From: an uncultured virus (IMG/VR IMGVR_UViG_3300028380_000008)
Taxonomy: Duplodnaviria > Heunggongvirae > Uroviricota > Caudoviricetes
Direction: 5' to 3' (one strand)
IMG/VR virus record: IMGVR_UViG_3300028380_000008
Length of the DNA stretch: 64,000 nucleotides
Below the pieces are notes generated by a model. The model searched no databases, had not been told where the DNA came from, and saw only the letters and a program-made list of their open reading frames with translations. Below are positions 4,701 to 57,314 of the stretch, piece after piece (position 1 is the first letter of the stretch; each line of letters opens with the position of its first letter). Both the position numbers and the translations under genes were made by a program.

Positions 4701-4880
4701 ATGGGCACGGTGACGTCGCTGAGCATCCGCCGCGATCGGATTCGGATGGAACGCGTCGCCGCCGAGCTGCGGAGCGGCGACCCGGTCTACGGAGACTGGT
4801 GGGCGCTGCTCTACCTGCTCGCGCACGTCCGAGACGCGGCTCGCCGAGTATCGGGAGACCCGGGCCGCGCGGCGACCTAG
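4701..4880 (+). CDS. Small hypothetical protein
   Basis: MGTVTSLSIRR...; follows promoter. Confidence 0.55.
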   Translation: MGTVTSLSIRRDRIRMERVAAELRSGDPVYGDWWALLYLLAHVRDAARRVSGDPGRAAT

Positions 4881-5041
4881 TTCGTGTGCGTGCAGGTCTT
4901 GCTCTGCGTGCAGCACATCCCGGTCGGTGCCGCCGTGCTGCACATGCCGCCACCGACCACGTCACCCATGTCGGTCGAGCTCAGGACCTTCACCGTCTCG
5001 CTGTTCAACTTGGTCTTCGAGTTACGCTTGTTCTTGTTCAC
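4877..5041 (-). CDS. Lanthipeptide/RiPP precursor-like peptide (54 aa, not in ORF track)
   Basis: MNKNKRNSKTKLNSETVKVLSSTDMGDVVGG-GMCSTAAPTGMCCTQSKTCTHTN; GGAG RBS before GTG; double-Gly leader and Cys/Ser/Thr-rich core. Confidence 0.7.
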   Translation of the reverse strand: MNKNKRNSKTKLNSETVKVLSSTDMGDVVGGGMCSTAAPTGMCCTQSKTCTHTN

Positions 5042-5083
5042 TTGGTGCTCCGTTCGTTAGCCGTCTTGATTGCCGGCTTGGTG

Positions 5084-5112
5084 AAGCTACTCGAGCAGTG
5101 CATGGTCGTCAC
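5084..5112 (-). promoter_or_regulatory. Putative promoter of the peptide gene
   Basis: Minus-strand GTGACG-17-TAGCTT, about 40 nt upstream of GTG 5041. Confidence 0.45.
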
Positions 5113-5166: not shown

Positions 5167-5219
5167 GGTGACATCGTCACCACGAATAGTTGACGACCGT
5201 CGGGTGGCGCAGGTACACT
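5167..5219 (+). promoter_or_regulatory. Perfect operator GGTGAC-atc-GTCACC (5167-5181) plus leaderless promoter
   Basis: TTGACG(5190)-18-TACACT-8-ATG 5228. Confidence 0.7.
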
Positions 5220-5227
5220 GCGCGCTG

Positions 5228-5542
5228 ATGACGAACACCAGTTTGGCTAAGTTATTGATGTACACGTTGGGTCCTGGGATTATCATGGTGGTGAGCGTCG
5301 CCGTCGCTGCCATGGTCAGTTGCAAGGCGCGGGACGCGCGGCTGTGGATCGGCATGGACAGGTCAGCGGTCAGCTGCTCGTACGACGGGCCTCGGCGCGA
5401 CCAGATGACGTGCGTCGGAGGCGGTGTTGTGTACAGGTGCGTGACCGAGGAGGGGTCCACGTGGCGCTGCGCGGCGCTCGTGCTCGGCGCGGGTCGGCCC
5501 GACGGGCCCTTAGAGAGTCCAGACGGGGTGGGTCCGAAGTGA
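5228..5542 (+). CDS. Putative small Cys-rich lipoprotein or membrane protein
   Basis: Hydrophobic N-terminus ending AMVSC, then four further Cys. Confidence 0.55.
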   Translation: MTNTSLAKLLMYTLGPGIIMVVSVAVAAMVSCKARDARLWIGMDRSAVSCSYDGPRRDQMTCVGGGVVYRCVTEEGSTWRCAALVLGAGRPDGPLESPDGVGPK

Positions 5543-15487: not shown

Positions 15488-16227
15488 CTCCGCTGGCGGA
15501 GAGCTTGAATCTGCTCCGGGAGGTCCGGGCGAGCTCGCCCGGCGTGATCATCGGGCTGAGCGGAGGCAAGGACTCGCTGGCGACGCTCGACCTGTGCGTG
15601 CGCGAGTTCGGCGCGGCCCGCGTGAGGGCGTTCCACATGTACCTCGTGAAGGGTCTCCGCTGCGTCGAGCGGACCCTGCGGTGGTGCGAGAGCCGGTACG
15701 GGGTCGCGGTCGAGGCGGTGCCGCACTGGACGCTCGCGAACGCGTACAAGTACGCCTCCTACATGCCGCACCGATCTCGGACCGACGGGTGGAGGGACAC
15801 GCGCATGAGGGACATCGAGCAGGCGGTGCGCGCCAGGCTCGGCCCGTGGTGGATCGCGTACGGCCACCGCATGTGCGACAGCATCGAGCGGGTCGGCATG
15901 CTCTCCAGGAACGGAGGGCTGGACGCCGCCGGCCGCCGCGTCTACCCGCTGCGGGTGTGGAACGAGGCATCCGTGATGGCGTACCTGCGCGCGCGGAAGA
16001 TCCCGCCGCCGCCCCGGCTGACGATCCTCAAGAGGTCGATGACGGGCGTCTCGTTCCAGGAGGACGTGCTGATCGCGATCCGCGACAGCTACCCGGACGA
16101 CTTCGAGAAGATCGTCGAGAAGTTCCCGTACCTGCCGGCGAAGCTGGTCAGGTACGAGCTGAAGAGGAAGACATGGAAGCAGAGCACGTACGTCGACAAG
16201 TGGCGGACGTCTCTCAAGGACAGATGA
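15484..16227 (+). CDS. PAPS-reductase-family PP-loop protein (IbrA/DndC-like); start uncertain
   Basis: IGLSGGKDS, GHRMCDSIER, YPLRVWNEASVMAYL. Confidence 0.8.
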   Translation: MTPLAESLNLLREVRASSPGVIIGLSGGKDSLATLDLCVREFGAARVRAFHMYLVKGLRCVERTLRWCESRYGVAVEAVPHWTLANAYKYASYMPHRSRTDGWRDTRMRDIEQAVRARLGPWWIAYGHRMCDSIERVGMLSRNGGLDAAGRRVYPLRVWNEASVMAYLRARKIPPPPRLTILKRSMTGVSFQEDVLIAIRDSYPDDFEKIVEKFPYLPAKLVRYELKRKTWKQSTYVDKWRTSLKDR

Positions 16228-17192
16228 TGAAGAAGCAGGCGACAGGAGGCGGCAGCCTCCACCCAGCGCAGAAGTTCGTCGTCGCGCGCGTCCACCGCGA
16301 GAAGATCAAGAATGCGCCGTACAACCCGCGACAGATCGACGACCACGCGAGGAAGAAGCTCAGCAACAACATCAAGAAGAAGGGGTTGCTGGACGCGCTC
16401 GTCTGGAACAAGCGGACAGGTAACCTCGTGTCGGGGCACCAGCGGTTGAGCATCCTGGACGACCTCAGCAAGACGGGAGTCAGCTACGCGATAGACGTCG
16501 CGGTGGTCGACCTGTCGGAGCGCGAGGAGAAGGAGCAGAACCTGTTCTTCAACAACCCGAGCGCTCAAGGTGACTACGACGTCGATAAGCTCGGGAAGAT
16601 GATAGTAAACGACGAAGTCGACTACAAGTTGTCGGGGTTCGACGACATGGACCTGCAGATGCGGTTCGAGGGCACCGACTACGCGGTGACGATGTTCGAC
16701 GACGACAAGGCGCCGCAGTCGGTGCAGGACGACCTGGAGCAGCTGGAGGAGATCCAGCGCATGAAGCGCGAGCGGAAGGCGCACCGCGACCGCGACCAGG
16801 ACGCCAACGACCCGGAGTTCTACGCGGTGGTCGTGTTTCCGGACCGCGACGCGCAGGGGCAGTTCATGGAGCGCGTCGGCATGGACAGGAACGCCCGCTA
16901 CGTGGACGGGGCTCGCCTCCACACGTCGCTGGAGGCGGCGAAGCCGCGGACCAAGACGTACGACGGCGAGCCGTTCGAGGAGATGACGTTCTGGGTCGCC
17001 AGGGACCAGAAGCAGGTGATCGAGGACGAGCTGACGCGCATCGCGGCGCTGATGCGAGGGAAGAACCTGCGGGGCCGCGCGCTGGAGGCGATGGCGGTGA
17101 TATCGTCGCAGACGTCGACGGACAACATCATGGGTGAGGAGCCGGAAGCTCGACCCGAACCCAAGCCGAGGAAGAGGAGATCAGATGCCTGA
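16224..17192 (+). CDS. ParB/Srx N-terminal-domain protein (IbrB-like)
   Basis: APYNPRQI...LVWNKRTGNLVSGHQRL; ATGA overlap. Confidence 0.85.
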   Translation: MMKKQATGGGSLHPAQKFVVARVHREKIKNAPYNPRQIDDHARKKLSNNIKKKGLLDALVWNKRTGNLVSGHQRLSILDDLSKTGVSYAIDVAVVDLSEREEKEQNLFFNNPSAQGDYDVDKLGKMIVNDEVDYKLSGFDDMDLQMRFEGTDYAVTMFDDDKAPQSVQDDLEQLEEIQRMKRERKAHRDRDQDANDPEFYAVVVFPDRDAQGQFMERVGMDRNARYVDGARLHTSLEAAKPRTKTYDGEPFEEMTFWVARDQKQVIEDELTRIAALMRGKNLRGRALEAMAVISSQTSTDNIMGEEPEARPEPKPRKRRSDA

Positions 17193-27766: not shown

Positions 27767-28627
27767 ATGAGCGAGTTCTCAGACCTCGTAATGCGCGAGA
27801 AGCCGCGGAAGCTCGGCAAGGCTCCGGGCGGCAAGAGCGGGGCTTTGCTCGCGTCGTACGAGGGAGGAGTCAAGGCGATCGTCAAGGTCACCAAGGACAA
27901 GCTGCCGAGCGGCCACCGCAAGCAGCGCGGCATCCCGGCCGAGGCTCACCCGACGCGGGAGGTCGCGTTCTACAGCGCCGCGCTGATGCTCGGGTACGGA
28001 GAGCTCGTGCCGGAGACGGTGCTGACGAGCAAGGCTGTGCCAGGCGCGACGGCGTCGGCGCAGCTGTTCGTCCCCGCGCACCAGCTCCACGAGGTCGTGC
28101 CGGAGCTGAAGGACCTCGACGCGCCCGACTGGGGGCAGCACCTCGTCGAGGCGTGCGCCAGGGTACCGAAGGTGTTCTGGAAGCGGCTCCTCATCCTCGA
28201 CATCCTCGGCGGGGTCCGCGACCGTCACGCGAACAACATCGGCCTGCGCCTGCGCGTAGTCGACGACCAGCCGGTGTACAGGAACGTCGCTTGGGACAAC
28301 GCGGTGTCGTTCGGCAAGACGTTTGATCGTTACCACAACGTGTTCCACAAGCACTTGTTCCGGAGAGCTGTGGACCTCGGAGAAGAATGGCAATCTGTAG
28401 ACAAGTTGACCCGCGCTGACCTGCGAGGAGCAGTCGGCATGTACTTGCAACCAGACGAGCTCGAGCATGCCTACCTGCGCGTGCGGTTCTTCCGCGACTA
28501 CCCCTACCGATTGCCGTGGCGCGTCTGCAGCAAGGGCAACGACGACCCGCACGGTTTCCCCGACTACGAGACGTATTTCCGGTCGTGTGTCGGGGGCCCC
28601 CGACACACGGCACACGTCGCGGCATGA
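27767..28627 (+). CDS. PI3/PI4-kinase-fold (HipA/CtkA-like) kinase
   Basis: GGKSG loop, KAIVK, REVAFY, VPETV, SAQLFV, DRHANN, WDNAVSF. Confidence 0.8.
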   Translation: MSEFSDLVMREKPRKLGKAPGGKSGALLASYEGGVKAIVKVTKDKLPSGHRKQRGIPAEAHPTREVAFYSAALMLGYGELVPETVLTSKAVPGATASAQLFVPAHQLHEVVPELKDLDAPDWGQHLVEACARVPKVFWKRLLILDILGGVRDRHANNIGLRLRVVDDQPVYRNVAWDNAVSFGKTFDRYHNVFHKHLFRRAVDLGEEWQSVDKLTRADLRGAVGMYLQPDELEHAYLRVRFFRDYPYRLPWRVCSKGNDDPHGFPDYETYFRSCVGGPRHTAHVAA

Positions 28628-35097: not shown

Positions 35098-38000
35098 GTG
35101 TCCTTTTTCTCCCCGCCGCCTCTGCCGCCGCGACGCCGGCCTGGTCCGCCGCTCGGTGTCCAGAGCTCGGTGGACGGGGTCGGCGCGATCACCGGGTCTG
35201 GCGACCTGGCCGGCGCGTCGGCGCCGCCCGGCGCTGGCGCGCTGACCGGCTCCGGGACCCTGGCCGGCGCCGGCGCGGCGCTGGCCGCCGGGGCGGGCGC
35301 CCTGACCGGGTCCGGCACGCTGGCGGGAGCTGCCGCCACGTTCCCGCTGTCGGTGTCCGCCAACGGGCGCTACCTTGTGCAGGCCAACGGGACGCCGTTC
35401 CTGATCTGCGCCGACGCGACGTGGTCGATCTTCGTCGACATCCCGCTCGCCGGGCTCAGTTCGTTCCTCGGGACGATCGCCGCCCAGGGGTTCAACGCGG
35501 TCTCCGGCAACGCGATCGAGCACCACTTCTCCGTCGTCAAGCCACCCAAGGAGCGCGGCGGCCTCCTGCCGTTCACGCAGCGGATGGACGGGACGTCGTA
35601 CACGGGGTCCCCGAACGGGACGACCGGGGCGTCCGGCACCCAGGGCCAGTTCGCTAGCGACAACTATAGCAACATAAGCAACCAGGCTCCGGACTGCACG
35701 TTCGTCAACAACAGCTACTGGGTGGTGCTGGAGACGATCCTCGACGCATGCCTCGCGAACGGGTTGCTCGTGTTCGTGTGGCCCGGGTACCTCGGGTTCA
35801 ACGCCGGCGACGAGGGCTGGGCCGGCGAGATGGTGGCGTGGGACGCGGTCACCGGGGCTGGCGGCTTCACCGGGCAGCCGTTCGCCGACCCGACCAAGAC
35901 GAAGATGTGGAACTACGGCGCGTGGCTCGCCGCGCGCTGGAAGAACTACGGCAACATCATCTGGGTGATGGGCGGGGACTACGGGTCCGGGACGCACCCG
36001 CTCACGGGCCCGCAGTCGGCGGCGGCGAGCAACCTGATGGCGGGGATGAAGTCGGTGGCGGGGCAGCAGTCGCTGCTGTTCACGGGTCACTGGGACCGTT
36101 CGTCGCTGTCGACGGACACGGCGTTGGCCGCCGGGTCGTTCGACGTCAACGGGTGCTACTCCGACGACGCGACCGCCGAGCTCGCGCGGCGTGGGTACGC
36201 CGCGTCGCCGACCAAGCCCGTCGTCGGGCTCGAGGCGTACTACGAGGACAGCGCGGTCGGCGGCAGCGCGCCGTGGAGGAAGTACCTCTACTGGCAGTTC
36301 GTCGGCGGGATCGCGGGCGGCTTCTTCGGTAACGAGCAGCTGTGGAGGTTCGACGACGGAACCCCGGGCACCGACTACACCACGCTGCTCTCGACCCAGT
36401 CGACGAACGACGCCGTGCGGCAGTTCTCGCTGTGGCGGACGCTGCCGTGGCACCGGCTGAAGCCGTCCGGGCTCGGAGGCATGGGCACGCTGATCACCGC
36501 GGGTGGAGGCACGGCGAGTCCGCAGTCGACCGACTACGTCGCGGCGGCGGCGACGTCGGAGGGTGACCTGCTGGTCGCCTACGTCCCGCCAGCGCACACG
36601 GGGACGATCACGGTGAGCATGACCGTGATGGCAGCGTCCGCGCGGGCTCGCTGGTTCGACCCGACCAACGGGACCTTCACGCAGATCGGCGTGGTCGCCA
36701 ACACGGGGACCCACGTCTTCACCCTCCCAGGGACCAACAGCGCCGGCGACGCCGACTTCCTGCTCGTGCTCGACACGCCGGCCGGCGCGCTGACCGGCTC
36801 CGGGACCCTGGCCGGCGCCGGCGCGGCGCTGGCCGCCGGGGCGGGCGCCCTGACCGGGTCCGGCACGCTCGCCGGGGTTGGCGCCGCCTCGGCTGCTGGG
36901 TCTGGGACCCTAGCCGGGTCCGGCACGATCGCCGGGGTCGGGGCTGCCTCGGCCGCCGGCGTCGGCAGTGTCACCGGGTCCGGAGACCTCGCGGGGACCG
37001 GAGCCACCGTGATCCCGGGGTCCTCCGCGCTCGCCGGCTCCGGCACGATTGCTGGAGTCGGCGCCGAGCTCGCGGCCGGCGCTGGCGCGCTGACCGGATC
37101 GGGCACGATCGCCGGGGCCGGCGCGTTCGTGCTGCCGGGAGCCGGGGCCGGCAACCTGACCGGCTCCGGGACCCTGGCCGGCGCCGGCGCGGCGCTGGCC
37201 GCCGGGGCGGGCGCCCTGACCGGGTCCGGCACGCTCGCCGGGGTCGGGGCGGCGCTCGTCGCCGGCGCGGGCGCGCTGACCGGATCGGGGACGCTCGCCG
37301 GGGTCGCGGCCACGACCGCGCCCGGAGCGGGCGTGATCACCGGGTCCGGAGACCTGGCCGGCGCCGCCGTCGTGCCCGCGGCGGGGTCCATCGTCGGCTC
37401 CGGCACGATCGCGGGCGTTAGCACCAGCACCCCTGCTCCCGAGGTACAAACGAACATGCCGCCAGCTCCGGTGACCCCGTCGAACCAGCCGGCTGCGTCG
37501 GCGGTCATCAGGCAGACGTCGTCGCGGTTCAGCTCGGTGTTGTCCCTCGACGACCTGACGCCGAGGTACCTGCAGGACAACTACCTCACCGGGTTCACCA
37601 TCACCGGGTCCGACGGCCAGCCGCTCCCGCCGAAGTTCTATGAGGACAAGATAGCCGACGCCATAGCGAAGCTGGAGAGCGTGACGCACATCGACGTCTT
37701 GGAACGAGACGTCACCGGAGAGAAGCACGACTACCACACGAACGACTACCTCAACTACGCGTACCTGCAGCTGTTCCGCACCCCCTGCCAGTCCATCAGC
37801 CAGGTCCGCGCGGTGTACCCGACGGGGCAGGTGATCCAGGTGTTCCCGTCCGAGTGGGTGCGCGTCTACGTCGAGCACAGCCAGATCCACCTCGTCCCGA
37901 CCTCCGGCTCCCTCGCCCAGGTGATGCTCGGCGGCGGCAACGGGTACCTGCCGTTCATCTTCGCCGGCCTGTCGTACCTGCCGAACCTGTGGGAGGTCGA

Positions 38001-38316
38001 CTACGTCTCCGGGTTCCGTGTGGACGGGGTCCCGCGGGAGGTCGTGAGCGCCGTCTGCAAGCTCGCCGCGATCGAGGTGCTGACCATCGCGAGCGACCTC
38101 GTCGGGCCGCTCGGCATCGCGTCTACCAGCCTCGGCATCGACGGCATGTCGCAGTCGATCGCCCGGCAGCTGCCGGCCTTCAAGGCGCGGATCGACCAGT
38201 ACCGGGTCGACCTCGGCATCCCGGGCCCGGCGCTCGGGGTCGACCCGAAGTACACCACCGGAGAGATCGGGCAGCTCCGCCGCACCTACCTCGGCATGGT
38301 AGCGGTGAGCGTCTAG
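35098..38316 (+). CDS. Fusion of a DUF4038/GH140-like glycosidase, Gly/Ala repeats and a C-terminal head-tail adaptor
   Basis: SANGRYLVQANGTPF...NIIWVMGGDY...EAYYE...ARWFDPTNG; GAGALTGSGTLAG repeats; LTPRYLQDNYLTG...EKHDY...GIASTSLGIDGMSQSI. Confidence 0.8.
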   Translation: MSFFSPPPLPPRRRPGPPLGVQSSVDGVGAITGSGDLAGASAPPGAGALTGSGTLAGAGAALAAGAGALTGSGTLAGAAATFPLSVSANGRYLVQANGTPFLICADATWSIFVDIPLAGLSSFLGTIAAQGFNAVSGNAIEHHFSVVKPPKERGGLLPFTQRMDGTSYTGSPNGTTGASGTQGQFASDNYSNISNQAPDCTFVNNSYWVVLETILDACLANGLLVFVWPGYLGFNAGDEGWAGEMVAWDAVTGAGGFTGQPFADPTKTKMWNYGAWLAARWKNYGNIIWVMGGDYGSGTHPLTGPQSAAASNLMAGMKSVAGQQSLLFTGHWDRSSLSTDTALAAGSFDVNGCYSDDATAELARRGYAASPTKPVVGLEAYYEDSAVGGSAPWRKYLYWQFVGGIAGGFFGNEQLWRFDDGTPGTDYTTLLSTQSTNDAVRQFSLWRTLPWHRLKPSGLGGMGTLITAGGGTASPQSTDYVAAAATSEGDLLVAYVPPAHTGTITVSMTVMAASARARWFDPTNGTFTQIGVVANTGTHVFTLPGTNSAGDADFLLVLDTPAGALTGSGTLAGAGAALAAGAGALTGSGTLAGVGAASAAGSGTLAGSGTIAGVGAASAAGVGSVTGSGDLAGTGATVIPGSSALAGSGTIAGVGAELAAGAGALTGSGTIAGAGAFVLPGAGAGNLTGSGTLAGAGAALAAGAGALTGSGTLAGVGAALVAGAGALTGSGTLAGVAATTAPGAGVITGSGDLAGAAVVPAAGSIVGSGTIAGVSTSTPAPEVQTNMPPAPVTPSNQPAASAVIRQTSSRFSSVLSLDDLTPRYLQDNYLTGFTITGSDGQPLPPKFYEDKIADAIAKLESVTHIDVLERDVTGEKHDYHTNDYLNYAYLQLFRTPCQSISQVRAVYPTGQVIQVFPSEWVRVYVEHSQIHLVPTSGSLAQVMLGGGNGYLPFIFAGLSYLPNLWEVDYVSGFRVDGVPREVVSAVCKLAAIEVLTIASDLVGPLGIASTSLGIDGMSQSIARQLPAFKARIDQYRVDLGIPGPALGVDPKYTTGEIGQLRRTYLGMVAVSV
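35236..37235 (+). repeat. Exact direct repeats: 86 bp at 35236-35321 and 36784-36869, ~80 bp at 37156-37235
   Basis: ggcgcgctgaccggctccgggaccctggcc...gggtccggcacgct compared base by base. Confidence 0.85.
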
Positions 38317-55199: not shown

Positions 55200-57314
55200 A
55201 TGAAACGCTTCAGCAAGTATAGGATATCAACGCTCGCGATCGCCTTGGTGCTCGTAGCTGCCGGGGTCGGGCGCGCGGTCGCGAACTTCGTCGACGACAA
55301 CACTGCCCTGCCGGGACCGAAGACGGACAGGATACCCGTAACCAACCCGACGCAGCAGTGGAGCGCCGCCGACGCCAACGCCGTGTTCAACGCGTTGAAC
55401 GACCTGAGGACGGTCGCGAAGCGCGGCACCGTGAACATCAAGGCGTACGGCGCGGTCGGCAACGGTTCCACCAATGACCGTGCCGCCATCCAAGCAGCGA
55501 TCAACGCCAACCCCGGCAAGACGATATACTTCCCGAAGGGGAACTACCTCGTAGACGCCACGATCACCATCAGCGCGAGGTTCACGCACCTCGTCGGTGA
55601 CTTTGGCGGGAGAGCTTCGGACGGCGGGTCCGAGATCCAGTGCGTCGGGACGGGCAACTGCATACAGATCGGCACGGACAACGGGCACGCGTGGGACGTC
55701 GGGGACTACGACGGGCCGCAGGACCACCTGATCGAGAACCTGTGGATCCGCCACGGGGCACCCGACACGCAGCTCGCCAGCATCGGTCTGCCGTGCGGGG
55801 TCGGGCTCCACTACAAGGCGGGGGCCTACGGGGTGTGGGACTGGCGCGGCGGCGGGATCGTCATGCGCAACGTCGGCCTCGAGCACTTCGAGGCCAACTT
55901 CGTCGGCATACAGTCCGACCTGAACGCGTTCTGGTACGTCCAGAGCAACTACTCGAAGTACGGCCTCTACTTCGGTCCGCGCTCTGACCAGAACCGCGTC
56001 TACTTCGCGACGTCGATCTTCTGCGACCGCGCGATAACGATCGACCGCGCGGGGCAGACCGAGATCATGAACGGGTCGTTCGTCTTCTGCGGCACGGACA
56101 CGTCCAGCCACATCGAGGTGAGGCGCGGATCCCACGGGGTGCTGCTGAGCGGCAACTGGCACGAGAACTCGGCGGCGACGGCGTGCTTCGGGTTCCAGGG
56201 CGGGATGCAGTCGTTCGTGTCCGTCGGTGAGGTTGACGGCTACGGCGCCGGCGGCTCCATCCAGTCGCCCGGGGCCGGGACGTCGACCGCGGTGGCCGGG
56301 ACGACGCTCGACTACCCGCACCTGTATAACTTGCCACCCGGCAGCGGGCACACGCTGTACCTCGCGTCCGTCGGCAAGGTGAACCAGTTCACGTTGCGCC
56401 GCCCGTCCGAGTACATCAACAGCGGGCTGTCGAGCTTCGACGCGCTCGTCGCGATCCAGTCGGGGCAGGTTCCGACGACGACCGACACCCAGGTCGCCGT
56501 CTACGACATGCCCGACACGATGACGCGGACGCAGATCTTCCAGAACCTGGGCGGAGGGGCAGTCACCGCCGCTATCCAGAGCGGCAAGGTGCACGACAGC
56601 GTCACGCTCGGCCTGGACACGACGGCGACGCACACGTTCCGAGGCACCATCGTCCAGGACGCCCCGGCGAACGGCACGGCGTTCACGACGAACAACACGA
56701 AGACGGGCCAGACGGTCGGCTCCGTCGTGTGGAAGCTCAACACGACGGGTTCGTCGTTCGACACGACGGCCGGAGCTTTGTTCCCGGTCGCGCTCTCCAT
56801 CACCGACGCCGCGACGCGCTCGGCCGGCGCCAACTCGGTGGGCAAGACCGGCTTCTCCGTCGACGTGCTCAACGGCCAGAGCAACACCGCGATAACGACG
56901 GTCCGGGGAGACAATCGCTTCAACACCACGAGCGGCATCACCGAGTTCGCCAACGCCGTCTACTACTCCAACGAGATCGCGCCCACCTCGCTCAGCGCCG
57001 ACCAGACCGACTACAGCCCGACCGGGCTCGCCAGCGCGTCGCTGATCCTCGTGACGTCGTCGGTCGCTGTGAACATCAACAGCCTCGCGCTCAACGCCAA
57101 CTCCGCGGGCGGCCGAGACCTCGTGATCCGCAACGACAACGCGAGCGGCGGCAGCAACGTGACGCTCAAGGACGAGGCCGCGGCGCTCGGCACGGCGTCG
57201 ATGCGCTTCGCCGGGCGTGCGCACGCCGACACCGTCCTCACGCCAGGCACCTCGGCCAGGCTGAGGTACTCGATCCTGAAGACGCGGATCCTCGTCATAG
57301 GAGACACGCTGTGA
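55200..57314 (+). CDS. Pectate-lyase-3-like beta-helix tailspike with signal-peptide-like N-terminus
   Basis: VNIKAYGAVGNGSTNDRAAIQAAI...IYFPKGNY. Confidence 0.8.
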   Translation: MKRFSKYRISTLAIALVLVAAGVGRAVANFVDDNTALPGPKTDRIPVTNPTQQWSAADANAVFNALNDLRTVAKRGTVNIKAYGAVGNGSTNDRAAIQAAINANPGKTIYFPKGNYLVDATITISARFTHLVGDFGGRASDGGSEIQCVGTGNCIQIGTDNGHAWDVGDYDGPQDHLIENLWIRHGAPDTQLASIGLPCGVGLHYKAGAYGVWDWRGGGIVMRNVGLEHFEANFVGIQSDLNAFWYVQSNYSKYGLYFGPRSDQNRVYFATSIFCDRAITIDRAGQTEIMNGSFVFCGTDTSSHIEVRRGSHGVLLSGNWHENSAATACFGFQGGMQSFVSVGEVDGYGAGGSIQSPGAGTSTAVAGTTLDYPHLYNLPPGSGHTLYLASVGKVNQFTLRRPSEYINSGLSSFDALVAIQSGQVPTTTDTQVAVYDMPDTMTRTQIFQNLGGGAVTAAIQSGKVHDSVTLGLDTTATHTFRGTIVQDAPANGTAFTTNNTKTGQTVGSVVWKLNTTGSSFDTTAGALFPVALSITDAATRSAGANSVGKTGFSVDVLNGQSNTAITTVRGDNRFNTTSGITEFANAVYYSNEIAPTSLSADQTDYSPTGLASASLILVTSSVAVNINSLALNANSAGGRDLVIRNDNASGGSNVTLKDEAAALGTASMRFAGRAHADTVLTPGTSARLRYSILKTRILVIGDTL

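Follow-up and report, generated by a model that had tools for sequence, protein, structure and literature searches.

An orphan RiPP-type precursor gene in a predicted SPO1-like myovirus couples a drifting leader to a conserved core

What use would a phage have for the precursor of a modified peptide when the enzymes that finish such peptides are not recognisable in its own genome? The question is raised by a gene of 165 bases on the minus strand of the window, by which we mean the whole stretch of 64,000 nucleotides that was analysed. With no finishing enzymes found in the phage, the peptide probably borrows the peptide-making machinery of the bacterial host. The first-pass annotation of this DNA had described a 54-residue minus-strand open reading frame (ORF) with a GGAG ribosome-binding site, a leader and a core, and both the translation and the sequence agree with that description. 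The features of the locus are as follows.

4877..5041, minus strand: precursor gene, 54 amino acids, GTG start and TAG stop, with homologues and purifying selection
4949..5041, minus strand: leader, 31 amino acids, with a basic N-terminus
4949..4954, minus strand: Gly-Gly cleavage site, G30-G31, with a predicted cut before G32
4880..4948, minus strand: core, 23 amino acids, GMCSTAAPTGMCCTQSKTCTHTN
4913..4924, minus strand: first conserved pair, core T9-G-M-C12, a predicted thioether ring
4892..4903, minus strand: second conserved pair, core S16-K-T-C19, a predicted thioether ring
5048..5051, minus strand: ribosome-binding site GGAG, 6 nt upstream of the GTG start, read from the sequence
5084..5112, minus strand: candidate promoter GTGACG-17-TAGCTT, of the phage's own sigma-70-like type
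5169..5179, no strand: palindromic TGAC-N3-GTCA box, a possible operator, with the precursor on one side and the divergent gene at 5228 on the other

The 54-codon ORF is a real gene, under selection at the level of its protein, accessory and orphan. Trained on the contig, a codon model counts the ORF among 94 genes (score 19.4), its GC3 is 0.93, and it has homologues at E values of 2e-10 to 2e-14. Contigs from three of four other soil runs (X5, X6 and X7, not X8) span the ORF, and among the matches listed from these runs there is one change within it, at 4928, which is synonymous. The core, noted at the outset as rich in Cys, Ser and Thr, indeed holds 4 Cys and 8 Ser/Thr, and its calculated monoisotopic mass without modification is 2332.90 Da. 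The promoter proposed for the gene depends on the model used: a generic sigma-70 scan returned no minus-strand site and only two plus-strand sites, whereas GTGACG-17-TAGCTT ranks 20th of 159,508 sites scored with a matrix built from 11 other promoters of the same phage, a training set that left out the precursor region.

The phage itself could be followed beyond the window. Overlapping records close it as a circle of 116,869 bp: record G000 (79,784 bp, 68% complete) is overlapped at its end by G020 (37,103 bp) over 126 identical bases, a third record crosses this junction at 100% identity over 10 kb on either side, and G001 bridges the last 120 bases. The size is close to that of two contigs, of 116,986 and 117,000 bp, that carry the same precursor protein. 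The window has 67% GC and the portal, capsid, sheath and baseplate genes of a myovirus, and the capsid protein shares 35-39% identity with capsid proteins of SP-10/SPO1-like phages among the best 20 rows; judged by these predicted genes, the phage is an SPO1-like myovirus. Neither an integrase nor a resolvase was found in the phage with models whose controls matched in 14 and 12 of 14 genomes. The runs that cover it best are rhizosphere and soil metagenomes; the nine listed include no RNA run, which speaks neither for nor against expression. Its RecA gave no clue to the host, and the phyla met most often in the nearest Atlas clusters of its Cache-HAMP protein (phylum assigned for 24 of 84) are Myxococcota and Thermodesulfobacteriota, a weak lead towards a Myxococcota-like host from a cluster comparison not designed for taxonomy.

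The TGAC-N3-GTCA box upstream of the precursor occurs 10 times in G000, 8 of them intergenic, against 1.8 expected (at most 3 in 20 simulations), and is possibly a phage-wide operator. Copies lie in the window at 513, 1094, 2998, 4342, 5169 and 62712, with more in G000 outside the window and in L045 and L048-L051. The box overlaps the -35 element of sigma-70-like promoters, many of which have a start codon 6-9 nt downstream of the -10, a leaderless-type arrangement. It is conserved in the relatives G007 and G008 and nearly missing in G002.

Are the enzymes that would modify such a peptide encoded elsewhere in the phage? Six-frame searches of five records (G000, G020, G002, G013, plus G021 or G001) with models that include PF04738, PF05147, PF03412, PF14028, PF00005 and PF04055 found LanB N- and C-terminal domains, LanC-like proteins, C39, radical SAM, YcaO and ABC transporters in none of the five. 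Controls exceeded the cut-off for C39, radical SAM (PF04055 in 14 of 14 genomes), YcaO and ABC; the LanC control matched below the cut-off only, and the LanB models PF04738 and PF14028 ran without a positive control, a Streptomyces genome having given no control match. Pfam scans of 62, 99 and 30 proteins revealed no RiPP enzyme, and no Lan family among the 11 genes of at least 600 amino acids; a search of the complete phage G002 found none either. A leader HMM finds one precursor in G000 and none in G020. The reported lack of RiPP enzymes in the 64 kb thus holds for the window and for the remaining phage genome, and the closed circle contains no recognised cognate enzyme that would end the orphan status, with the LanB models run uncontrolled. 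These searches bear out the initial view of a phage-encoded, orphan, double-glycine precursor of lanthipeptide type, as well as its proposed dependence on host RiPP machinery, given that no recognisable enzyme or transporter is present in the phage.

Which machinery that might be is suggested by the leader. The query has Glu at -17 and V, L, M and V at the hydrophobic positions -15/-12/-7/-4, and family leaders retain this Glu, these hydrophobic positions and a GG, GA or AG end. Hydrophobic residues at -4/-7/-12 form the recognition motif of C39 peptidase transporters, according to the accessible text of PMC10885120. This export motif is V/M/L in the query and is intact in 18 of 19 rows, Ala at -4 counted, the sole other row having a one-residue insertion. 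Since these residues fix the register, the cut is placed after G31 despite a triple Gly; GA variants in L005 and P0096 also support the Gly-Gly register, and we infer cleavage at this site. The KLxxETVxxL box first read in the leader fared less well, agreeing with the published LxLxKx5L motif at just two of four positions (the query has T-x-L-x-S-x5-L). In the family, L/V/I at -20 and L/I at -12 are found in 17 of 17 rows, and K at -18 in 1 of 17.

Leader models had been proposed as a check, and the protein falls under both of the nearest NCBIfam cut-offs: it scores 13.9 bits against NF038153, the class I lanthipeptide leader (cut-off 22), and 23.7 bits against TIGR04149, a radical-SAM target (cut-off 25, E 3.3e-5, residues 5-35), which is its best HMM, above the lanthipeptide model. 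No phage copy passes either curated cut-off; the closest copies score 13.8-21.9 bits against NF038153 or do not match, and the related P0013 exceeds the cut-off at 27.4 bits. NF038153 matches 11 of 15 rows of A2 (E<=1) and TIGR04149 4 of 15. The nearest Atlas clusters of the precursor are class I lanthipeptide leader clusters (0.89), to be taken as a lead only. The precursor thus appears to resemble class I LanA in design and falls outside curated family membership.

The pattern of conservation is the reverse of the conserved leader and variable core that had been anticipated: in the six closest rows core identity, which is inflated because rows were chosen by core resemblance, is 0.92, against 0.39 for the leader, and 62 weaker matches show leader identity of 0.39 and core identity of 0.16 to the query. 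The row set comprises 19 rows with a recognisable core. It excludes near-copies (P0001, P0002, P0092 and the cluster members P0103-P0106), the incomplete L008 and L009, and looser relatives (P0013-P0017, P0039, P0057, P0101 and P0102); two rows with one-residue indels are omitted from the column counts (P0011) and the leader counts (P0006).

Two further results are less affected by the bias of core selection. Among five copies (10 pairs), the first 19 core codons show synonymous differences of 0.35-0.99 versus non-synonymous differences of 0-0.14, and the last 11 leader codons, in an ungapped comparison, non-synonymous differences of 0.39-0.54. Ser16 is encoded by AGC in three copies and TCG or TCC in two, so that Ser is kept across the AGY and TCN sets, and the GC3 of the copies is adapted to each genome (0.57-0.93). 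The other result is a subclade in which the N-terminus of the core is altered to GIHG and which retains both of two conserved Ser/Thr-x-x-Cys pairs, at 9-12 and 16-19. Position 9 is Thr or Ser, position 10 Gly and position 12 Cys in 18 of 18 rows; position 16 is Ser or Thr in 18 of 18, Cys19 is present in all 17 rows that reach that column, and position 17 takes nine residue types over 18 rows. We infer that T9-C12 and S16-C19 are thioether rings, and lanthionine rings fit best the strict Ser/Thr exchange in the two pairs. The number of Cys is 4, 3, 2 and 1 in 8, 7, 3 and 1 of the 19 rows, and P0099, with its single Cys, retains T9-G-L-C12. A fixed core behind a drifting leader favours a mature product with a fixed target.

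The same core recurs in another complete phage and in three contigs that are phage-like, over a range of 43-68% GC. A first search gave five of five candidates with a near-identical core and leaders of varied sequence, and profile searches for relatives gave 74 and 26 matches. The second complete phage, G002 (117,394 bp, 43% GC), has the same order of structural genes and carries the precursor two genes past recA; L009, which also has the precursor, is a relative of G002. Three contigs, L004, L005 and L006, look phage-like by their predicted gene content: numerous small genes occur in L005, together with a serpin and a Cache-HAMP protein in common with the query phage, L006 has a thymidylate synthase, a dCMP deaminase and a ParB-like gene, and in L004, as in L008, the precursor lies antisense within a tRNA array. 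Other family members sit on contigs of up to 111,391 and 119,400 bp; the contigs with P0008, P0098 and P0099 measure 46,654, 111,391 and 119,400 bp. Every context seen for the core is phage or phage-like, and the ORFs scanned at the relatives' loci include no RiPP enzyme. On present gene content this is an orphan, putative RiPP precursor whose small family has so far turned up solely in DNA that is phage or phage-like.

In L004 and L008 the homologue (L004:1784-2088, L008:1151-1417) directly adjoins tRNA-Glu(TTC). Glutamyl-tRNA is the co-substrate of LanB, and the adjacency may be chance among 12 tRNAs.

In 20 records searched, the real matches were G000 and G001, which are the same phage, and G002. 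The complete relative G013 has no precursor, and in G007 different genes take up the corresponding place; with presence in G000/G001 and G002, this makes the gene accessory. It occupies different genomic positions in different phages, and a tree of 38 precursors is largely unresolved and gives no support for one origin. The precursor matches nothing at E<=10 among cultured phages or plasmids and nothing in Pfam or PHROGs, and its best match in the PDB has an E value of 0.52. When 185,579 bacterial and archaeal genomes were scanned for the exact pattern, a search that diverged cores would escape, the one match returned was false. Other candidates were dropped as false matches (L003, the Streptomyces locus L010, L071 and L072/G025), for a stop codon inside (a G013 match, E 0.078) or for having no leader (10 of 10 loci of one relatives search); an A5 scan over viral contigs gave 590 candidates, none of which was confirmed.

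With confidence slightly above even, we favour an explanation in which class I lanthipeptide enzymes and a C39 transporter of the host would turn the precursor into a bicyclic peptide that has a conserved target, and export it. A non-integrating soil myovirus would express a LanA-type precursor from its own promoter and pass it to the RiPP pathway of the host, where the leader would dock on a class I LanB/LanC pair able to take LxLxKx5L-type leaders. After dehydration of Thr9 and Ser16, Cys12 and Cys19 would close on them to give two rings of four residues each, with Cys3 and Cys13 perhaps giving extra rings in the subgroup of the query, and a host C39 peptidase-ABC transporter would cut at the Gly-Gly site and export the 23-mer. 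Both pairs, T9-C12 and S16-C19, are spaced like the TP(G/S)C ring of the nisin motif, and class I precursors with an LxLxKx5L-type leader are often clustered with a C39 protease, in what is accessible of PMC7268733; a C39 domain cuts a class I precursor with a GG leader, in the part of PMC12328550 available. Against this explanation stand the best HMM of the query, which is the radical-SAM TIGR04149 rather than NF038153, with neither cut-off reached, and the fact that no Lan cluster of a host and no copy of the core in bacteria came to light.

So fixed a core implies a single conserved target, and its constancy across phages of 43-68% GC points to a bacterial one. The likeliest role, held tentatively and at less than even confidence, is that of an extracellular ligand altering the state of neighbouring hosts or of a co-infecting phage. 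An antimicrobial role ranks behind it and seems unlikely: with no integrase and no recognisable immunity gene, the antibiotic of a lysogen is less likely, which favours a signal or envelope ligand around infection. In a broader and doubtful form of the proposal, several non-integrating soil phage lineages would feed one core into the lanthipeptide lines of their hosts, the product being an exported bicyclic signal that steers neighbours or other phages and is possibly read or sequestered by the output-less Cache-HAMP membrane protein.

Among the alternatives, the precursor might act within the cell as a decoy or substrate mimic and block a host RiPP pathway, such as an anti-phage lanthipeptide system, as the first-pass annotation had offered beside a modified exported product. 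Anti-phage class I lanthipeptide clusters do exist and are apparently intracellular, as the available part of 10.1101/2024.06.26.600839 has it, and a decoy would suit a phage with no integrase or resolvase whose gene has its own candidate promoter. We nonetheless consider it improbable. The leader, the part that binds the enzyme, has drifted as far as in relatives with an unrelated core (0.39 vs 0.39) under a core that is fixed, and it retains an export motif; moreover, such lanthiphages are reported in Actinobacteria only and their TxDxCxxxCxxxC motif is missing here (10.1101/2024.06.26.600839, as far as its accessible text goes). Of the two options in the annotation it is thus the leader decoy that is weakened by the conservation pattern.

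Two further alternatives keep the export step and change the chemistry. A host radical-SAM enzyme could form the thioethers, as for a TIGR04149-type RiPP, followed by export through a host C39 transporter; TIGR04149 is the best model for the query (23.7 bits, E 3.3e-5, cut-off 25), yet we give this little weight, since it matches 4 of 15 rows of A2 versus 11 of 15 for NF038153, and the strict Ser/Thr exchange at core positions 9 and 16 fits dehydration chemistry. There is likewise a small chance that the peptide is unmodified or closed by a C12-C19 disulfide and leaves through a double-glycine transporter of the host, much like a pheromone or class II bacteriocin. Since neither C12 nor C19 ever varies, one disulfide would also suit the 17 of 18 rows in which they occur together, and the export motif is intact; on the other side, Cys number varies from 1 to 4 over 19 rows, P0099 keeps T9-G-L-C12 with one Cys, and a disulfide gives no reason for the strict Ser/Thr-only columns. 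That the gene was acquired from a host by chance and without benefit, or is an ORF artefact, is hardly credible and already largely refuted by the codon comparison: its distribution is patchy, being missing in the complete G013 and in the matching region of G007, but synonymous sites are near saturation with almost no core change, GC3 is adapted per genome (0.57-0.93) and genomic positions differ between phages.

Compared with known systems, the precursor shares with class I lanthipeptide precursors (NF038153, PF28317; PMC7268733, in the text available) a short basic leader with a Gly-Gly end, Leu at -20 and -12 and a Cys/Ser/Thr-rich core. It differs in scoring below the cut-off with two of four motif positions, in lying in a phage replicon with no LanB, LanC or C39 gene, and in a core that is conserved rather than variable. 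The nisin-type lipid II motif SxxxCTP(G/S)C (PMC7268733, same text) is missing, the query core reading CSTAAPTGMC. Its leader likewise resembles TIGR04149 radical-SAM RiPP precursors at 23.7 bits, but stays below the cut-off of 25 in a phage with no radical-SAM gene and with relatives that match weakly. In bacteria, a single distant enzyme can serve scattered precursors, as with the prochlorosins.

Bacteriocin clusters carried by phages, that of sublancin in SPbeta among them, also place a RiPP precursor on a phage, but in the accessible account (10.1101/2020.10.01.322628) they bring enzymes, a transporter and an immunity gene and belong mostly to temperate phages; the query precursor is alone, in a phage in which no integrase was found. 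Arbitrium (PMC12360287) and agrD/B/C of phiCDHM1 (PMC3901668), as described in the available portions of those papers, are likewise phage-encoded precursors that are secreted and processed. Arbitrium, however, works with a linear hexapeptide whose receptor the phage encodes and which enters through a host permease (PMC12360287, as available), whereas the query product is predicted to be cyclised; phiCDHM1 encodes its own processing enzyme and kinase (PMC3901668, in the part available), and for the query no cognate enzyme or receptor is established. Lanthiphages put lanthipeptides at the phage-host interface as well, although in the accessible text these are whole host-encoded clusters of Actinobacteria only, with another core motif and apparently intracellular (10.1101/2024.06.26.600839). 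The query core has no Asp and another Cys spacing than TxDxCxxxCxxxC, and among the LphB/C/D/E genes of lanthiphage clusters a PF14028 search, run without a positive control, found no match in the phage.

The annotation knew of no described phage system of this kind, and we too found no lone lanthipeptide precursor of a phage in the open literature; subscription papers or supplements may hold one. Phage-borne biosynthetic clusters appear rare, at 69 of 10,063 phage genomes with a cluster-based tool (10.1101/2020.10.01.322628, in the portion available), and a precursor-level survey filtered out viral contigs (PMC11118758, likewise in its available portion). A gene of this size that borrows host enzymes escapes cluster-based mining. 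If the favoured explanation is right, phages can produce modified natural products while spending next to nothing of their genomes on them, and an exported bicyclic product would amount to a RiPP-based system of phage communication or host manipulation.

Candidate partners were sought among other phage genes. No receptor family was found by Pfam among the neighbours of the precursor, and no receptor strictly co-occurs with it. The Cache-HAMP membrane protein, which has no cytoplasmic output domain and is possibly a decoy sensor, is encoded by the same phage outside the window (L019:6251-7222) and by relatives (L005:7532-8515, L075 and L045:4181-5110), with 61-69% identity among seven relatives; one such relative and the precursor P0099 are both on 119,400-bp contigs, possibly the same one. 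It was rejected as an obligate partner: the complete G023 has the protein without the precursor, and G002 the precursor without the protein. A 286-aa gene in the window (27767-28627), kinase-like by eye and with no Pfam match, is conserved in the head module of G002, G013, G007 and G015; it was rejected as a dedicated enzyme, being present in G013 and G007, where the precursor was not found.

Several other genes deserve mention. A pectate-lyase-like tail protein (window 55200-57314 and L012:10109-12154) is 59% identical between the query phage and G002; like the precursor, it was not found in G013, G008 or G007, and it may mark a shared host group. At 15505-17192 of the window a PAPS-reductase-domain gene adjoins a conserved 321-aa gene with no Pfam match, and the two may be a DNA-modification module. 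The serpin of the phage-like contig L005 (5193-6308) is full-length (E 3e-104), and the query phage has a weak serpin match at L018:10353-11228. In G002, a 1,655-aa head-module protein (L013:8662-13629) fuses an SNF2 helicase with an ADP-ribosyltransferase domain, inserted in a gene whose counterpart in the window is 482 aa long. A 1,048-aa virion-module protein of the window (35170-38316) has an apiosidase-like catalytic domain, and its C-terminal part matches a 271-aa protein of G002. Finally, DNA polymerase A (L011:10461-13934) is interrupted by a LAGLIDADG-containing stretch, missing in G002 and G008, that is probably an intein.
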